Origin: an uncultured virus (IMG/VR IMGVR_UViG_3300025261_000058)
Taxonomy: Duplodnaviria; Heunggongvirae; Uroviricota; Caudoviricetes
IMG/VR virus record: IMGVR_UViG_3300025261_000058
Length of the DNA: 20,000 nucleotides
Reading direction: 5' to 3' (one strand)
Shown here: positions 1,828 through 20,000 of the stretch, piece by piece
Layout of the letters: the number at the start of each line of letters is the position of its first letter
How positions within the stretch are numbered: the first letter of the stretch is position 1
Program-made: the position numbers and the translations under genes
The notes under the pieces: generated by a model
Told to the model about the DNA's origin: nothing
The model's database searches: none
The model's input: only the letters and a program-made list of their open reading frames with translations

Positions 1828-1881
1828 GCTTTTTGCTTTGCTAAATCAAATCTTTTTGCACGTTGATCAAAATGATTGATC
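1803..1881. promoter_or_regulatory. OR operator cluster
   Basis: Sites at 1803-1821, 1845-1863 and 1863-1881 resemble the OL motif AGCAAATC-N4-TGATCTA; CAAATCTTTTTGC is identical at 1847 and 3063. Confidence 0.7.
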
Positions 1882-1891
1882 CCGTCATCAT
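1863..1891 (+). promoter_or_regulatory. pRM-like promoter, likely giving a leaderless cI mRNA
   Basis: TTGATC-17 bp-CATCAT, then 7 nt to ATG 1899; no SD sequence. Confidence 0.5.
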
Positions 1892-1898
1892 TCGCACC

Positions 1899-2657
1899 AT
1901 GAAAACGGTGAAAGAGATCCGGTTAGAGAATGCGCGCGCGCTCGCACACGAGGGCCCGGCCGAGTTCGCGCGTCGAATAGACAGCAGCACGCAGCAGGTC
2001 AATCAGTTCATGGGGCCGTCGCCGACTCGCAACATCGGCGACAAACTGGCGCGCCGTATCGAGGGGGCGTTTGGCAAGCCAGAAGGGTGGCTTGACGTCG
2101 AGCACATAACCGGCAGCGCCGATGCATCAATCAGCGGAACAAGGTCAGCCGTACTCGAGAAATTGCTGCCAGAAGGAAGCGGTAACTTAGTCACATGGGA
2201 GACCCCGGAAGATCTCGAGCCCGACGACGACCGGGTGTGGATCGACCGTTATGACTATCGTTACTCAGCGGGGAATGGCGTGATTCAATGGGAAGTACGA
2301 CAAAAAAAGGCGCTGCCGTTTGATATCGGTTTCTTCAAGGCCCTTGGTGTGCGCCCACAGGATTGCAGGTTGGCCCAGGTTCACGGTCGGAGCATGGAGC
2401 CGTATCTGTTCAATAAAGACATGATGATGATTTGCATGGCGAAGAACCGGGTGAAGGACGGTCTGATTTACGCCGTGACGTTTCAGGATGAACCGCTGGT
2501 GAAGCAGATCTTTAAGGAGCCGGAGGGCGCTCTGAGGCTGCATTCCTACAATCCAGAGTTTCCCGACAAGATCATCGCCGCGGACCAGCTGGAAGGGCTT
2601 CAGATCGCCGGAGAGGTTGTGTATCGATCCGGTTCAGGCTTGGCCGGCGGTAATTAA
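1899..2657 (+). CDS. cI: CI-type prophage repressor (HTH + S24 autopeptidase)
   Basis: N-terminal HTH (AEFARRIDSSTQQVNQF..RNIGDKLARRIE); SAGNG cleavage-site motif, GRSMEP serine, VKQI lysine. Confidence 0.95.
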   Translation: MKTVKEIRLENARALAHEGPAEFARRIDSSTQQVNQFMGPSPTRNIGDKLARRIEGAFGKPEGWLDVEHITGSADASISGTRSAVLEKLLPEGSGNLVTWETPEDLEPDDDRVWIDRYDYRYSAGNGVIQWEVRQKKALPFDIGFFKALGVRPQDCRLAQVHGRSMEPYLFNKDMMMICMAKNRVKDGLIYAVTFQDEPLVKQIFKEPEGALRLHSYNPEFPDKIIAADQLEGLQIAGEVVYRSGSGLAGGN

Positions 2658-2752: not shown

Positions 2753-2952
2753 CATTTCCGCCTCTGCTCGAAGCCCTCCCGCCATAACGTAGCACCGACC
2801 GACGTCAACACGGCCAGGTCGTCTCCCCCGAATCTCTCCCAGTTCTGCGCAAGCCAGCCTGCGAAGCCGGCGCACGCGTAGTCAATCGGTACGTCTGCTC
2901 GGCCCTCGACGTTCAATCGCTCGAAAACCGTTATCACGTCGTCTGCGGTCAT
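2752..2952 (-). CDS. Small accessory protein (66 aa) between cI and pL
   Basis: Strong GGAGG RBS; converges on the cI terminator. Confidence 0.7.
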   Translation of the reverse strand: MTADDVITVFERLNVEGRADVPIDYACAGFAGWLAQNWERFGGDDLAVLTSVGATLWREGFEQRRK

Positions 2953-3002
2953 CTCAGCCTCCTAGTACCCACCTTCAGTCTAGACGGCGATCCCTCTATC
3001 TG

Positions 3003-3115
3003 AGCAAATCTTTATGATCTATTGAAGCTATGCAGGCGATAGAAATAATTGTTCGCTCCGAGCAAATCTTTTTGCGACATAGCGCTTGGCAAAGCAAATC
3101 AAATTGATCTATGAT
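3003..3115 (+). promoter_or_regulatory. OL operators and pL-like promoter
   Basis: AGCAAATC-N4-TGATCTA at 3003-3021 and 3093-3111, variant at 3061-3079; TTGGCA(3086)-18 bp-TATGAT(3110). Confidence 0.7.
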
Positions 3116-3161
3116 TCTCTCCATACCGCAACACAACGCAACGACGGAGAAGGGGATTGAA

Positions 3162-3368
3162 ATGAGCCCGAACAACCTTAATGCATTCCGCGCGATTGAC
3201 GAAGTCTTCGACGGAACTTTCATGTTGACGTTTGGCGGCCCGCTCGACGCACCGGAGATGATTCCGAACGGCTCGATGGTCGCGCATGAATGCCACACGA
3301 TCCTCGCCGGTTCAGCACTTCGCTTGGGCGCGCACAACAAACCGTGCATATCGTTCCAGGTGCGCTAA
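3162..3368 (+). CDS. First pL-operon gene, hypothetical (68 aa)
   Basis: AAGGGG RBS before ATG 3162. Confidence 0.65.
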   Translation: MSPNNLNAFRAIDEVFDGTFMLTFGGPLDAPEMIPNGSMVAHECHTILAGSALRLGAHNKPCISFQVR

Positions 3369-3370
3369 CA

Positions 3371-3420
3371 GGTCGAAACCGCTTCGGCGGTCTGAGCGTA
3401 AGGCGCTCACTGACGAGACC
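3371..3420 (+). ncRNA. Type II hammerhead ribozyme; predicted cleavage after C3392
   Basis: GGTC-GAAA-CCGC(TTCG)GCGG-TC-TGAGCG(TAAGG)CGCTCA-CTGACGA-GACC: complete core (CUGANGA, GAAA, GUC) with three perfect stems. Confidence 0.95.
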
Positions 3421-3440
3421 GTGAATTACCCGCAGTAGAA

Positions 3441-4068
3441 GCACCCGCCCCGGCAGAGCCGGATCGCGGTTTGGGTCTTTAAGCGTAATCGGAAAGATAA
3501 ACGGACGTGAAACAGTCGTCCAGACACGTTGGTGTCCCTCCCTTGGCCTGGCTCGGAGGAAGAAGAAAGAGCCTGAAACGAGGACAGATGATCCTCAGAT
3601 GCGAAAGCATCGCCCAGCACACCGTGGCGCGGTAACGGGTGCAAACCATGCGGGATCGGGAGACAGACTGGTCCCGCATGTGTAGCAGTTTTTCTGAGAG
3701 AGCCGCTGAGCTCCCGTCACAGACTGAGTATCCGCCGTTAGTAGCCGCATAGATCCGTGGTCCCCCATAACCCGGTAGCGCCGAACCCGGCTCGAAGGTC
3801 TCCCTGATAGCAACAGCGCTCTCTCAGAAACACTGCACCGAAATTGCACCCAGGTAGATGGACATCAAACTCCATCGGTGTGTGCGACTCGCTGGCGGAC
3901 GAGTGATAAAGACTTCGCCTCCACACCCTTTGAAGCGCGGGCCTGGCAAGCTGTGGATAGGGTCACGAGAACGGTTCTACGCCAACGAACGCCGGATACG
4001 TAACCGGCACGAATTCTGAGTCCCCTAGCCGCGGCCGATTCGCTGAGTCGGCGGCGGTTAGGTGATTC
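3441..4068 (+). ncRNA. Tandem structured RNA domains of unknown family
   Basis: Nested closing stems at 3441/3642, 3647/3680, 3685/3836, 3850/3946, 3991/4008 and 4018/4068, with GU pairs; no credible ORF. Confidence 0.7.
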
Positions 4069-4112
4069 TCACATGATGGCATTCAGTACAACTTATTTCA
4101 TCGGGATTTGAA

Positions 4113-4448
4113 ATGGCGATGACGTCGCTGATGGCGTCGCTAAAGAGATTGGAGGCTGATATGAAGATGATCGAGAAAGCTGTAGCGAGACAGGATGACG
4201 AGGCTGATGACGACATTGAGGAAGCTCGCGAAATCCTCAAGTCATTAATCGAGAACATCCGGGCGGATGGGCATTACTCGATAGAGGCAACTTGTACCTT
4301 TATCCAACAGGCCATGAACTGCCTTCCCATGACCACTGATATCCGGCCGATAAGCATCGATCTTGATTCTCCGCGCAGGGTTGTATTGGTTTTCAGAACC
4401 GCTGCCGATGCCGAAGCGTGGATCGCTAGTCAAGAGATTGGAGGTTGA
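4113..4448 (+). CDS. Hypothetical protein
   Basis: 111-aa ORF; stop adjacent to next RBS/ATG. Confidence 0.65.
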   Translation: MAMTSLMASLKRLEADMKMIEKAVARQDDEADDDIEEAREILKSLIENIRADGHYSIEATCTFIQQAMNCLPMTTDIRPISIDLDSPRRVVLVFRTAADAEAWIASQEIGG

Positions 4449-10948: not shown

Positions 10949-11088
10949 CGCGTTCCCCACCCCAAGCGATGTAGCCCACTCGGGTATTGATCTCGCCAAA
11001 CAGCGGGTGAGGGGACGCGCCTATACCAGTCCCGCAGACAGCACAGTCTGCGGCGTGTTTGGGGCGGCCGGTCTGGCGCCTCCTTTTT
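10949..11088 (+). promoter_or_regulatory. Structured leader and terminator-like hairpin before the methyltransferase
   Basis: Stems 10949-10962/11005-11019, 11032-11039/11046-11053 and 11061-11082, followed by T5. Confidence 0.5.
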
Positions 11089-11103
11089 AGAGAATCAGGG
11101 GCT

Positions 11104-11832
11104 ATGAATGAGTTGGCTCTTTTCGCAGGCGCTGGTGGCGGAATACTCGGCGGCCACCTTCTTGGATGGCAAACCATCGTCGCAGTTGAACGTGATGCCC
11201 ACGCAGCACAAATTCTGGCACAGAGGCAAAACGATGGAGCCATCCGACCATTCCCAATTTGGTCTGACGTCACGAGTTTTGACGGAAAGCCATGGCGAGG
11301 CATTGTTGACGTCGTATCGGGCGGCTTTCCATGCCAGGACATTAGCGTTGCCGGCACCAAGTTGGGCCTCGAAGGCGAGCGCAGTGGGCTCTGGTCGGAG
11401 TTCTTCCGGATTGTGGGCGAAGTTCGACCCGGCTTCGTGTTCATTGAGAACAGCCCAGCACTCGTTACTCGAGGACTCGACCGCGTGCTCGCCGATCTTG
11501 CCTCCATCGGGTTTGATGCTCGCTGGTCGTGTCTATCAGCGGCCCAGCTTGGCGCCTGTCACGAACGTAACCGCGCCTGGATCGTTGCCCACTCCTCTGA
11601 AGTCATGGGGCCGGCGCGGGCCGGGCTTATCGAACAACCTCGACAACTTGCGATGCAGCCTTGGAGTTACGAAGGAGTGTCTAGCGATAGTGGACGCCGT
11701 TGGGTGGAGATGGCCCGCAAGTTTCGTCGAATGGATGATGGGCTGGCCTTTGCAGTGGAGCGCACTGAAGCCATTGGAAATGGGCAGGTTCCAATCGTGG
11801 CAGCAACAGCATTCGACCTTCTCACGCGCTGA
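11104..11832 (+). CDS. DNA (cytosine-5) methyltransferase, alpha-type chain
   Basis: LFAGAGG (I), GGFPCQDIS (IV), ENS (VI), HERNRAW (VIII), IGNGQV (X); no motif IX in this frame. Confidence 0.93.
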   Translation: MNELALFAGAGGGILGGHLLGWQTIVAVERDAHAAQILAQRQNDGAIRPFPIWSDVTSFDGKPWRGIVDVVSGGFPCQDISVAGTKLGLEGERSGLWSEFFRIVGEVRPGFVFIENSPALVTRGLDRVLADLASIGFDARWSCLSAAQLGACHERNRAWIVAHSSEVMGPARAGLIEQPRQLAMQPWSYEGVSSDSGRRWVEMARKFRRMDDGLAFAVERTEAIGNGQVPIVAATAFDLLTR

Positions 11833-11842
11833 AGCGGCGTGA
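11108..11842 (+). CDS. Overlapping-frame methyltransferase beta-type chain (motif IX); true start uncertain
   Basis: 244-codon open +1 frame ending PASFVEWMMGWPLQW, resembling motif IX E..LMGFP..W. Confidence 0.7.
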   Translation: MSWLFSQALVAEYSAATFLDGKPSSQLNVMPTQHKFWHRGKTMEPSDHSQFGLTSRVLTESHGEALLTSYRAAFHARTLALPAPSWASKASAVGSGRSSSGLWAKFDPASCSLRTAQHSLLEDSTACSPILPPSGLMLAGRVYQRPSLAPVTNVTAPGSLPTPLKSWGRRGPGLSNNLDNLRCSLGVTKECLAIVDAVGWRWPASFVEWMMGWPLQWSALKPLEMGRFQSWQQQHSTFSRAEAA

Positions 11843-16285: not shown

Positions 16286-16497
16286 ACGAATCGATGTTTC
16301 TGTCCGAGGATGAGCTCGTGGAGATGACCGGCAAGGTTAGGCACCCGGCACAGGTTCGCGTTCTGAATCGCCTTGGCATCGATCACAAGGTGCGGCCGGA
16401 CGGCTCGATAGTCGTGCTCCGGGCCGTCTCGCAACGCGTCTTGGGCGATCGCACGCCGAAGGCTACTATCAAGACGTGGGAACCCGTCTTCAACTAA
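16282..16497 (+). CDS. xis: Excisionase-like protein (DUF4224 type)
   Basis: FLSEDELVEMTG....AQ..L...GI....RPDGS.VV; immediately upstream of the integrase. Confidence 0.85.
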   Translation: MNESMFLSEDELVEMTGKVRHPAQVRVLNRLGIDHKVRPDGSIVVLRAVSQRVLGDRTPKATIKTWEPVFN

Positions 16498-16499
16498 TC

Positions 16500-17552
16500 A
16501 TGCCGCGTCCAAAGAGCAAAGAAAATCAGGGCCTCCCGAAGCGCTGGACGGCCCACCACGGCGCCTACTACTATCAGGTGCCGCTGGGGCAGGAGAGCGC
16601 GTGGGACGGCAAACGCAAGTTCCGGCTCGGCGCGACGCTGCCTGAGGCCTATCGGACATGGGCAGATCGCATTGGCCGGACTGACAACGTACGGACAGTC
16701 GGCGATCTGCTGGACCGGTATGTGTTGGAAGTTATCCCCACAAAAGCGGCGTCTACGCAAACGCAGAATCGCGCGTCGCTGAAGTTCATCAGGGAGAAGT
16801 TTGCCACCGCGCCACTAACAGCGGTGAAGCCATCGCACATCTACAAATATCTCGATTGGCGTCCGGCCAAAGTGCAGGCGAGGCGGGAAATTGAGATCTT
16901 GTCGCATGCTTTCACCAAGGCGGTGGAGTGGGGCTACATCGACAAGCATCCGTTCAAAGGCGAGGTCCGCAAGGAGGGCTCCAAGCCGCGCACGCGATAC
17001 GTTGAAGATTGGGAGATCGTTGAATGCCTGTCGATCGAATCCAAACGCAAGAAGGGTAGCGTTCTGGCCGTCCAGTCGTATATCCGTGTGAAGCTGCTCA
17101 CAGGGCTGCGCCGCGGTGATCTGTTGCGCCTGCGCATGGCTGACCTGAAAGACGACGGCATCCATGTGACACCCTCAAAGACCGCGGACTCGACCGGCAA
17201 GCGGGTGATTATTCAATGGTCCGACGAGTTGAGGGAAGCGGTGGCGATGGCAAAAGGCGCTCGACCCGTGCAGCTGGGGCCGTTCCTGTTCTGCAATCGG
17301 GCAGGGGAATGCTACATCGACGAGGCGTCCGGACGCGCCGGCGGATGGGAATCTCTATGGCGGGGATTCATGGCTCGCGTGCTTGACGAAACCAAGGTCA
17401 CCGAGCGATTCACCGAGCACGATTTGCGAGCGAAGTGCGCGAGCGATGCGGAAACGCTGGCTCATGCGCAGGCACTTATGACTCACGCCGACAGCCGGAT
17501 AACAGACCGCGTCTATCGCCGGAAACCGGAGATGGTGAAGCCGCTGCGCTAG
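16500..17552 (+). CDS. int: Tyrosine recombinase / phage integrase
   Basis: TGLRRGD (R), SKT (K), HDLR (HxxR), MTH (H), RVY (Y). Confidence 0.95.
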   Translation: MPRPKSKENQGLPKRWTAHHGAYYYQVPLGQESAWDGKRKFRLGATLPEAYRTWADRIGRTDNVRTVGDLLDRYVLEVIPTKAASTQTQNRASLKFIREKFATAPLTAVKPSHIYKYLDWRPAKVQARREIEILSHAFTKAVEWGYIDKHPFKGEVRKEGSKPRTRYVEDWEIVECLSIESKRKKGSVLAVQSYIRVKLLTGLRRGDLLRLRMADLKDDGIHVTPSKTADSTGKRVIIQWSDELREAVAMAKGARPVQLGPFLFCNRAGECYIDEASGRAGGWESLWRGFMARVLDETKVTERFTEHDLRAKCASDAETLAHAQALMTHADSRITDRVYRRKPEMVKPLR

Positions 17553-17903: not shown

Positions 17904-18608
17904 GTGTCACACGCGACTAACGGCCCTACGTCCGATGGCGACTATGTGACACTGAGGGCCTCCCTACTGGCGCGCGCGGACTATGCGCCACTTGTTCCGA
18001 GATTCGTGCGTACCTGCCGCGACCTGAGCCAGTTCTGGCAATTCATAAAACACAAGTTTCCGAGTTACGCAGAGCGGCGGTTGTTTTTGTGGGACGAGTT
18101 CAGGCCTCTCCTGGAGCGAATCGAAGGGGCCGGGACGAGTCCCGCCGATTCGGCAGTTACTGCGGCCATCGAGAAGTTCGATAGCGAGCATGTGCTGGCT
18201 GCATGGAACAAGGCATTGGAGAGGAAGCAGGCGGACCCAGAGGGCGCGATAACGATGGCGCGTACTCTTCTTGAGACCATGTGTAAGCATATTCTGGACG
18301 AGCGCGACGTATCTTACGGGGAATCGCCTGACCTGCCGGAACTCTACAGGCTCACATCTAAGGCATTGAACTTGGCTCCCAGTCAGCACACTGAGGGAGT
18401 CTTTAGGCAAATCCTGGGCGGCTGTCAGTCGGTGGTGGAAGGGCTGGGTGCCCTCCGAAACAAGCTTAGCGATGCGCACGGCACAGGCAAGCGCGCAGTA
18501 AAGCCCGCAGCAAGGCATGCTGAACTCGCAGTGAACCTGTCGGGAGCACTAGCCCTCTACCTGTTGGCCACACTAGAAGCCACAGGCCAGACTCCATCTG
18601 GGCAGTAA
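17904..18608 (+). CDS. Abortive-infection family protein (Abi_C/HEPN-like C-terminus); start may be further upstream
   Basis: DPEGAITMARTLLETMCKHIL..LRNKLSDAHG..AELAVNL. Confidence 0.85.
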   Translation: MSHATNGPTSDGDYVTLRASLLARADYAPLVPRFVRTCRDLSQFWQFIKHKFPSYAERRLFLWDEFRPLLERIEGAGTSPADSAVTAAIEKFDSEHVLAAWNKALERKQADPEGAITMARTLLETMCKHILDERDVSYGESPDLPELYRLTSKALNLAPSQHTEGVFRQILGGCQSVVEGLGALRNKLSDAHGTGKRAVKPAARHAELAVNLSGALALYLLATLEATGQTPSGQ

Positions 18609-19123
18609 GGCCGAAGTAGGTAGTCTGCCAGGTCATTGGTAAGTGCCATACGTCCTCAGCTATTCCTTTCCATCCGCCTATCCGCGGAGGAAAGAGGCAG
18701 GCCGTTTCTCGGTAGAACGATTCGCCAATGTCGTCGTGAACCACGTTCACAGAGTCCGAGGCTGCCTTCCTGAAGCTTGTCCGTTTTGCTCCCCTTGCAC
18801 TTAACTATTTGATACTGCACGTGACTGCTTACGATGTAGTCATTGTCTGTCGACATCGACCGACACGCCGACCTGTTGAGCGGTTTTTTGTTGACAGGAT
18901 CACAAGGATGCTACGCATACCTGAATTAATGCTTTGTCACTATCCCACTGGAATGCGAGCGGGAAAATACTGTCCCACGTCACCAAACACCAGAACGTCA
19001 CCTGTTTTCAGAGTTGTCCGATATGGCTGTCAGCGCGTCATGCGAGGTAATGCCTTGTCGCGTCAGCGGGCCAGTTTCCGGGCAATTCGGCGGAGTGGCT
19101 TAACCAGGATAGGGGACTTAAGA

Positions 19124-19453
19124 ATGCCGGAACAGCAGAAAAACCAAACGACATACCTGTTTGCAACTATTGGTGCTCGTACCGGGCGCGGCGGATACGC
19201 GAGCCGGGAACTGACCCGCGCCGAGTATGAAGGCAAGGCATGCGCTCGCGTCGGAGAAATCGACGCGTATGACGACGGCAGACAAACCACCATTATCGAC
19301 GGCGCCGCCGATGCCGCTACATGGGAGGTTAAGCCGCTTGCGCTGATCGGTTCGCGCCTAAGCAACGGCGAAATGACTCCCGTCCTGTTCGACCGCGGAT
19401 ACGCGCCGCCTGCCGCTGAGTCTGCCAGTGCGAGAGGCGACACCCATGCGTAA
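19124..19453 (+). CDS. PAAR-like protein, possibly degenerate
   Basis: ATIGARTGRGG..ARVGE..IIDGA..LALIGSRLSNG; AGGGG RBS. Confidence 0.65.
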   Translation: MPEQQKNQTTYLFATIGARTGRGGYASRELTRAEYEGKACARVGEIDAYDDGRQTTIIDGAADAATWEVKPLALIGSRLSNGEMTPVLFDRGYAPPAAESASARGDTHA

Positions 19454-20000
19454 GGCGCTCGTCGTGCAAGGCAGCCCCACGACGACAGGTGGCGTTGTAA
19501 CCGGCGGGTCAGCCACTCACATGACGGACCACCGCAGGCCATTCGCGCTCAACGGTGACGAAGCAACGTGCGGCAACTGCAAGGGTGCATTTTGGATATC
19601 CGGTACAGCTACACGCAGATGCTACAGAGGAAAGCCCGGCGTCGTCGAAGGCGATCTGGTGCTGTGTCCCTGCGGACAAAATCGCGTGATGGCTAGTCCC
19701 AATCCCGGTTGTTTCTACTGGACCGACGAAAGCGAAGCGGGCGAAAGCAGCGGGGCTGCTGCCGCAATCGCGTCATCGGTAGTAGACGCGATATACGACG
19801 AACAGGTCTGCGTCGCTGCTGCGGGCATGACGCTCGAAGGGTATCCGTATGTCATCGAGACGCCAGACGGCCGGATGCGCGCGGGACGCCTTGGTGCGGA
19901 TGGACGGCTACCGCGCATTGACACCGGCGAGAGTAGCGGCGACTACGCAGTGTATTGGGGCGATGAAGCGCTCGCACGCGATGACATGGCGCGCATCTAG
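19446..20000 (+). CDS. PAAR-domain protein with C-terminal extension
   Basis: GSPTTTGGVV..GDEATCGNCKG..EGDLVLCPCG. Confidence 0.88.
   Translation: MRKALVVQGSPTTTGGVVTGGSATHMTDHRRPFALNGDEATCGNCKGAFWISGTATRRCYRGKPGVVEGDLVLCPCGQNRVMASPNPGCFYWTDESEAGESSGAAAAIASSVVDAIYDEQVCVAAAGMTLEGYPYVIETPDGRMRAGRLGADGRLPRIDTGESSGDYAVYWGDEALARDDMARI

Follow-up and report, generated by a model that had tools for sequence, protein, structure and literature searches.

We found that positions 3474-3645 of a DNA stretch from an uncultured virus (IMG/VR IMGVR_UViG_3300025261_000058; the whole 20,000-nucleotide stretch is referred to as the window) encode a conserved non-coding RNA, the module, which is a chain of hairpins with two pseudoknots and not a closed multibranch RNA. 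The module is part of the early-left (PL) leader of lambdoid phages of Burkholderiales, including Burkholderia phage Bcep176. It stands at a fixed distance behind a boxA that resembles the one in ribosomal RNA (rrn) leaders, and no shared protein accompanies it as a partner. We tentatively read it as a cis-acting RNA site in the PL transcript that would let the early-left operon resist termination with no N protein involved, and we hold this reading with somewhat less than even confidence.

The window corresponds to the early part of a lambdoid (pro)phage. Its immunity region contains genes for a CI-like repressor (1863-2657, plus strand; PHROGs phrog_4, E 2e-25) and Cro (1765-1478, minus strand; PHROGs phrog_35), and a long plus-strand operon includes a RecE-like exonuclease and an integrase at 16476-17552. 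Relatives of this CI in named genomes belonged to Paraburkholderia, Trinickia and an unclassified Burkholderiaceae bin. At 3003-3115 (plus strand) three operator-like repeats (repeat family D1) overlap a sigma70-like promoter (-35 at 3086-3091, -10 at 3110-3115), and because of this overlap the promoter is presumably PL. The first PL gene (3162-3368, plus strand) encodes 68 aa without a family, is not arginine-rich and is followed by approximately 740 nt without a convincing gene. The CI family was found upstream, on the same strand, in 18/20 carriers of the module. A strict sigma70 match was present no more than 170 nt from boxA in 10/32 rows of family members. Elsewhere in the window, the gap that separates PL from the CI terminator holds a 66-aa ORF (phrog_21839; 2755-2952, minus strand), which is convergent with CI. 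At 11059-11842, two long plus-strand ORFs (257 and 244 aa) overlap in different frames, and the first looks by eye like a cytosine methyltransferase. The segment beyond the integrase (17904-20000), with phrog_23253, a PAAR-like ORF (by eye) and phrog_5348, probably belongs to the host or to an island bordering the prophage.

Distant copies of the module core were present in three loci (L011, L018, L025) among 26 viral loci chosen by CI alone. We built a covariance model, R1, from 14 sequences, without the pseudoknot pairings. After motif scans, searches with R1 and genome searches, the family consisted of approximately 36 distinct sequences, and the homologue rows were 53-70% identical to the window over the core. 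One motif pattern, which required the pairing of pseudoknot 2, returned 35 loci, 19 of them family members by inspection and profile; boxA was absent from the patterns that found the 32 rows. Among 86 further pattern loci tested with R1, 19 matched at E < 0.01. A loose pseudoknot pattern returned 120 loci, and none of the 80 that were tested belonged to the family. Five loci were obtained with a boxA-linker pattern (three already known members and two chance matches). Genome searches, which were insensitive or sparse, yielded two convincing members in 397 genomes and 1/150 when 25 candidates were scored per genome; further searches yielded no true member in 213 genomes and 5/401.

With blastn, positions 3000-4200 matched phages in the downstream cassette only (5 records) and plasmids not at all. 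Bcep176 was the only named phage with the whole module, which is annotated there as ORFs gp28 and gp29. We rejected these ORFs as real small protein genes: one- and two-base gaps occur throughout the alignment A3 (see below), and a conserved reading frame is therefore ruled out. R1 detected one copy in 25/27 carrier records, some of them incomplete, and two tandem copies in the same leader in the remaining 2. It detected no second copy in the rightward operon of the carrier records, some of which are incomplete, and no copy in 8 records with other modules. RNA-seq contigs from four runs of three studies covered the L025 homologue, which indicates presence only; steps of read depth there were confounded by strain differences and shared hairpins.

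The sequence-only reading had been unable to place this RNA in a family. In agreement with that, Rfam 15 gave no match in the window at the gathering threshold and only weak ones over the module at E up to 10, and no matches in 8 related loci, 6 of them carriers. Full-text literature, largely outside subscription papers, contained no description of the module RNA that we could find. A catalogue of 10,006 viral candidate RNA alignments (PMC10690425) could include it; no motif match was found in those of its supplementary files that are not the alignment archives, one table or the large PDFs. Burkholderia and boxA are unmentioned in the main text of Weinberg 2017 (PMC5737381), and the UG27 ncRNA arrays, as presented in the accessible part of bioRxiv 10.64898/2026.09.22.753630, are a different system.

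The structure was assessed on alignment A3, which was fitted to the nested stems; it has 28 rows, of which 27 are distinct, and omits four divergent members. In A3, 97.4% of 877 cells were paired, and compensatory change on both sides was present in 20/34 pairs. None of 500 shuffles reached the same pairing, and sliding by 1-3 columns left 29-47% paired. Folding of the window sequence on its own was marginal and not significant (MFE z = -1.9 for the plus strand, with 9/200 shuffles as good; z = -0.9 for the minus strand; z = -1.55 for the module core alone).

Two plus-strand hairpins occupy 3503-3536. Both had been proposed from the single sequence; judged by eye, the one at 3523-3536 is kept in place with variable sequence, and the one at 3503-3521 is only an optional insert. 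Pseudoknot 1 (3537-3575, plus strand) is of H-type, with a 5-bp stem 1, a 6-nt loop 1, a 7-bp stem 2, no loop 2 and an A-rich loop 3. Stem 1 (3537-3541/3555-3559) was 100% paired, with compensatory change in 2 pairs. Stem 2 (3548-3554/3569-3575) was paired in 97.8% of A3 cells, with 4 compensatory pairs, and RNAalifold selected it on A3 unaided, although it is absent from R1. The H-type pseudoknot that had been suspected from the complementarity of GGCTC (3550-3554) and GAGCC (3569-3573) was thus confirmed. In the window, a U-U mismatch separates 5 Watson-Crick pairs of stem 2 from a further C-G pair. Parsimony on a tree gave 2-7 changes per variable pair, and three divergent members had a shorter version with compensations of their own.

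Further downstream (3580-3611, plus strand) we observed a hairpin with the conserved 7-nt loop CWGAUGA (3580-3596) and a GNRA-type hairpin (3598-3611); both, like the earlier proposed hairpin 3537-3559, were borne out by the homologues. The CWGAUGA loop itself (3585-3591) sits on a 5-6-bp stem, which is the size of a tRNA anticodon arm, and its position 2 is not always U. In pseudoknot 2 (3611-3642, plus strand), 3611-3614 pairs with the loop 3626-3629 of hairpin 3617-3642. Compensatory change was present in 8/8 pairs of this hairpin. The loop pairing was invariant in most rows, partly due to the search pattern that required it, and both sides changed in one clade only (L064, L067, L384). Pseudoknot 2 is therefore less firmly shown. 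A 3' hairpin (3647-3681, plus strand) is a shortened version of the long hairpin found after many modules of types A and B; L143, L158 and L164 lack it. In L025 (8068-8117) and many other loci the long hairpin after the module contains an AGUA/GAR internal loop, common to type A and type B leaders. We take this loop to resemble the loop E motif.

The sequence-only reading had enclosed these hairpins in a multibranch layout. All the complementarities that it named are present, and single-sequence MFE folding gives the same fold, but the homologues did not retain the enclosing stems. The pairs 3441-3447/3636-3642, 3465-3470/3621-3626 and 3471-3476/3612-3617 were complete in 1, 1 and 2 of 30 homologues, respectively, with a slide of +/-2 allowed, and their probability was 0 in the window when the whole PL transcript was folded. 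Moreover, L002 and L010 keep the 5' arms before a different 3' module. The outer stems would bury part of boxA and break hairpin 3617-3642 and pseudoknot 2; since they are not conserved, we describe the module as a chain of hairpins and pseudoknots. The 5' leader could instead pair with the loop of pseudoknot 2; this pairing reached p = 0.01-0.05 in 9/32 related rows and not elsewhere.

These results bear on the proposal that the module is a riboswitch aptamer controlling the early operon. The 5' leader position would suit such a role and pseudoknot 1 has the general topology, as preQ1-I and SAM-II are H-type pseudoknots with an A-rich loop 3. However, an alternative outer fold is not conserved, no Rfam riboswitch matched, and no terminator or conserved gene was found behind the module. 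We consider this proposal most improbable.

A hairpin (3445-3469, plus strand) precedes boxA directly, in a position like that of boxB in rrn leaders, and contains the side hairpin 3450-3462. It was seen by eye in the homologues inspected and is common to L002 and L010, which have other modules. The boxA at 3474-3484 departs at two positions from the consensus GYTCTTTAANA (accessible text of PMC5725501), and with its purine-rich linker, which ends in GATAAA at +22, it spans 3474-3501 (plus strand). A boxA no more than one mismatch from the host 9-mer was present within 250 nt upstream in 32/32 rows (31 distinct): the 9-mer was exact in 14 and had one mismatch in 18, including the window. In the background, such a match occurred in 39/3124 windows of 120 nt. 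GATRAA was found at +19 to +22 of boxA in 28/32 rows; 3 rows carry a self-folding 120-nt insertion in the linker that leaves 19-20 unpaired nt, and one row has a variant hexamer. Six more loci (four distinct), obtained with a hairpin-junction pattern containing neither boxA nor either pseudoknot, all had boxA, GATRAA at +20/21 spacing and both pseudoknots.

The rrn leaders of the hosts, confirmed by 16S and 23S matches, have the same boxA and GATAAG at +21, followed by boxC. In the module, boxC (GU-rich, TGTGGG in the host) was not found after the linker, and the hairpin and pseudoknot 1 occupy its place. In the accessible text of PMC3177189 boxA is bound by NusB-NusE. In E. coli, according to the accessible part of PMC6614801, SuhB binds the linker between boxA and boxC, and the rrn complex acts against Rho and, in part, against intrinsic termination. 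The boxA of the module very probably loads Nus/SuhB factors on the polymerase. In L064 (7165-7190), L067, L005, L014 and L017, where the module is not directly behind the promoter, another conserved element recurs 5' of the boxA hairpin.

Approximately 80 nt upstream of the module, we read from the sequence a candidate type II hammerhead (3371-3429, plus strand), which follows the stop codon of the first PL gene by two bases. It consists of stem II (3371-74/3417-20), GAAA, stem III (3379-90), stem I (3393-3409), the CUGACGA core (3410-16) and a tail (3426-29) complementary to 3398-3401, and the predicted cut is after C3392. The core, the three stems, the open stem II and the tail pseudoknot agree with the type II class (Rfam RF02276) as described in the accessible part of PMC3088659, where hammerheads are also described as common in prophages. 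The Rfam hammerhead match here was weak and below the gathering score (seen at E up to 10). Relatives were found in L002, L007, L016, L019, L029, L063, L143 and L384; the hammerhead stands beside the module in 3/32 rows and in L384.

The module itself could also be a new class of self-cleaving ribozyme that processes the early transcript. It is a compact double pseudoknot with invariant junction bases, sits where hammerheads are common in prophages (accessible part of PMC3088659) and in the above rows adjoins one. We regard this as very unlikely, since no Rfam ribozyme model matched the module even at E 10, and a second ribozyme 150 nt after the hammerhead, directly behind boxA, would be redundant. 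The module also differs from hammerheads, in which CUGANGA and GAAA meet in a single three-way junction that has a UH site: here CWGAUGA and GAAA are loops of separate hairpins, and GAAA is replaced in many rows. Of the earlier suggestion of a ribozyme, aptamer or protein-binding RNA, the functional structured RNA stands and binding of a protein is compatible with our data. The ribozyme and the aptamer are disfavoured: boxA at 3474-3484, pseudoknot 2, the hammerhead and the PL-leader context, which all lay outside that description, point to elongation control or to a boxA-led cargo.

We then compared what related phages hold in the same slot. Up to 3469 the phage of L002 shares 98% identity with the window, and in blocks downstream 93-97%; in place of 3470-4017 it has a different folded RNA. 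Other CI-selected phages, BgManors32, phi644-2 and Pseudomonas D3 likewise have PL, boxA and a different module, and some CI loci had no boxA in the DNA examined. In phage D3 (L352, approximately 24940-24560, minus strand) the PL leader combines a perfect boxA with the same 5' hairpin; its folded module is a different one, is unannotated and was not matched by R1 (best 5.9 bits). A second and commoner boxA-led module, type B, occupies the slot in L002 (6610-6830), L003, L007, L015, L016, L017, L019, L021, L024 and L201; it has a conserved internal loop and gave no Rfam match in L024. Still other modules are present in L005, L010, L014 and L063.

Further cassettes follow the module in the window. 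Positions 3683-3838 form a second folded cassette with a closing 19-bp stem (z = -5.3 vs shuffles) and no homologue among the loci searched. A third non-coding cassette (3840-4012) is common to L034, phi644-2, E192a, PL1 and Bups phi1. At the 3' end of the swapped segment, a long hairpin (4017-4062) is identical in L002 and appears RNase III-like in shape. In G600 and G601, which have the same sequence, one leader contains a hammerhead, two boxA-led modules 414 nt apart (the second behind a boxA-like sequence) and a tRNA-like gene. In L397 (1345-2170) we observed a hammerhead, two tandem boxA-led modules and a tRNA-like gene with an abnormal anticodon loop.

This arrangement can be explained if the module acts in trans, as a stable non-coding RNA that serves as a decoy or inhibitor of a host defence or RNA-binding protein, which we consider doubtful overall. 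In such a case boxA would serve only to allow an untranslated RNA to be made and folded in the manner of rRNA. The hammerhead or the promoter would give a protected 5' end, and pseudoknot 2 and the long hairpins would protect or release the 3' end. The leader is a mosaic of exchangeable cassettes, with 3470-4017 swapped between phages that are 93-98% identical on both sides, and the folded cassettes at 3683-3838 and 3840-4012 fit that description. The order in G600/G601 (hammerhead, boxA and module, boxA-like sequence and module, tRNA-like gene) is an rrn-like layout; it looks like an operon of RNAs and counts against antitermination in cis. Early-left operons are also where lambdoid phages keep counter-defence genes. 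On the other hand, the single-stranded spacing to boxA is fixed even across insertions, no conserved terminator or 3' end was found, the next gene in G583, G584 and G603 starts approximately 50 nt after the module, and no target or complementarity was identified. A further candidate, type III antitoxin RNA, was rejected. Such RNAs (ToxI-like) are tandem 34-57-nt pseudoknot repeats before a toxin gene; the 20-kb window contains a single pseudoknot of this geometry and no repeat family, and the ORFs after the module showed no toxin family above the cut-off.

We searched for a partner protein of the module. There was no Pfam N match among 18 window ORFs, with a very divergent N still possible. 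When 4920 ORFs of 20 carriers and 8 non-carriers were clustered, the only widely shared real proteins (in more than 13/20 carriers) were CI (18/20) and Cro (17/20). Arginine-rich ORFs in the carriers were not shared and looked like shadow frames. A winged-helix ORF (11/20 carriers, 0/8 others) was rejected as the cognate factor, as it is absent from the record of the window and from Bcep176. Terminator-like sites downstream were at chance level in the window and in three other carriers, therefore a strong N-like activity may not be needed. The small number of terminators to overcome also favours the trans-acting RNA. A search of the text and 5 supplements of a CRISPRi screen with Bcep176 (PMC12584637) gave no match for nus, suhB or antitermination terms, and a screen of this kind may miss essential genes.

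The module can be compared with three known systems. Like the rrn antitermination signal (boxB-boxA-boxC, served by NusA/B/E/G, SuhB and S4), it has a hairpin, boxA and a GATAA linker at host spacing, and no phage protein was found. It differs in that a 140-170-nt hairpin and double-pseudoknot domain replaces boxC, it heads an operon of phage proteins, and more than half of the boxA copies have one mismatch. It shares with lambda nutL (boxA, spacer, boxB; N protein) the place in the PL transcript and the order of boxA and then a folded element, but lacks a recognizable N-like gene, the 15-nt boxB hairpin and a rightward copy. The putL/putR RNAs of HK022, a lambdoid phage that has no N, bind the beta' zinc-binding domain; they too are structured and directly follow the early promoter, and like them the module would act in cis. 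As described in the accessible part of PMC9378689, put is approximately 70 nt with two stem-loops, occurs at PL as well as at PR and works without dedicated factors; the module is larger (approximately 170 nt), has two pseudoknots and a boxA, and is present in one copy. In our reading the module would work like a nut, put or rrn site, yet it lacks defining features of each.

Our preferred reading, the cis-acting antitermination site, consists of three steps. In the first, which is strongly indicated, the nascent boxA and its linker of approximately 20 nt would copy the host rRNA leader and bring NusB-NusE, SuhB, NusA and NusG to the polymerase, as happens on rrn operons. In the second, which covariation shows, hairpins and two H-type pseudoknots form immediately after the linker, at the place taken by boxC in the host and by boxB in lambda. 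In the third, this rigid domain might dock on the polymerase or the Nus proteins and stabilise or strengthen the complex, which is the job of N in lambda and of put RNA in HK022. If PL and the site are separated by a gene, a hammerhead would often cut off the upstream mRNA. Several points count against this reading. BoxA alone would explain protection from Rho, and a contact of the pseudoknots with the polymerase is our proposal. Unrelated folds in the same slot of near-identical phages are unexpected for a domain whose partner is a conserved host enzyme. Finally, unlike nutR or putR, there is no rightward copy, and 18/32 boxA copies are one base off.

The interchangeable modules would also fit a passive, post-transcriptional role, in which the folds mask the sites where Rho loads and make the early mRNA more stable, or adjust how the next gene is translated, without a specific partner, so that any tight fold would do. 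The module does stay inside the 5' UTR in several carriers. However, the downstream genes differ between carriers, and loop 1, the AAA of loop 3, the CWGAUGA loop and GGUAA do not vary across rows that are only 53-70% identical to the window. Such invariant positions imply specific tertiary or protein contacts, and we find a passive role unlikely.

To our knowledge it is not settled, for most temperate phages beyond the enterobacteria, how lambda-like phages that lack both N and put read through their early operons, and we found no paper on such read-through for Burkholderia phages. It is possible, and we suggest it with rather low confidence, that N-less lambdoid phages antiterminate by a third, RNA-only route: a mimic of the rRNA boxA and linker, with an interchangeable folded cartridge, in this family the double pseudoknot, that would dock on the Nus/SuhB-modified polymerase and do the job of N there; different phages would have evolved different cartridges for the same socket. 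The module family is a precise and mutable object for this question, with a structure backed by covariation, a boxA at host spacing and natural swaps in near-identical phages. A culturable carrier exists in Bcep176, whose annotation shows a pair of tiny ORFs in place of the RNA. Something would be learned whichever reading holds: either an RNA upgrades the transcription complex that the host uses for rRNA, or phages have non-coding RNAs that are transcribed like rRNA.
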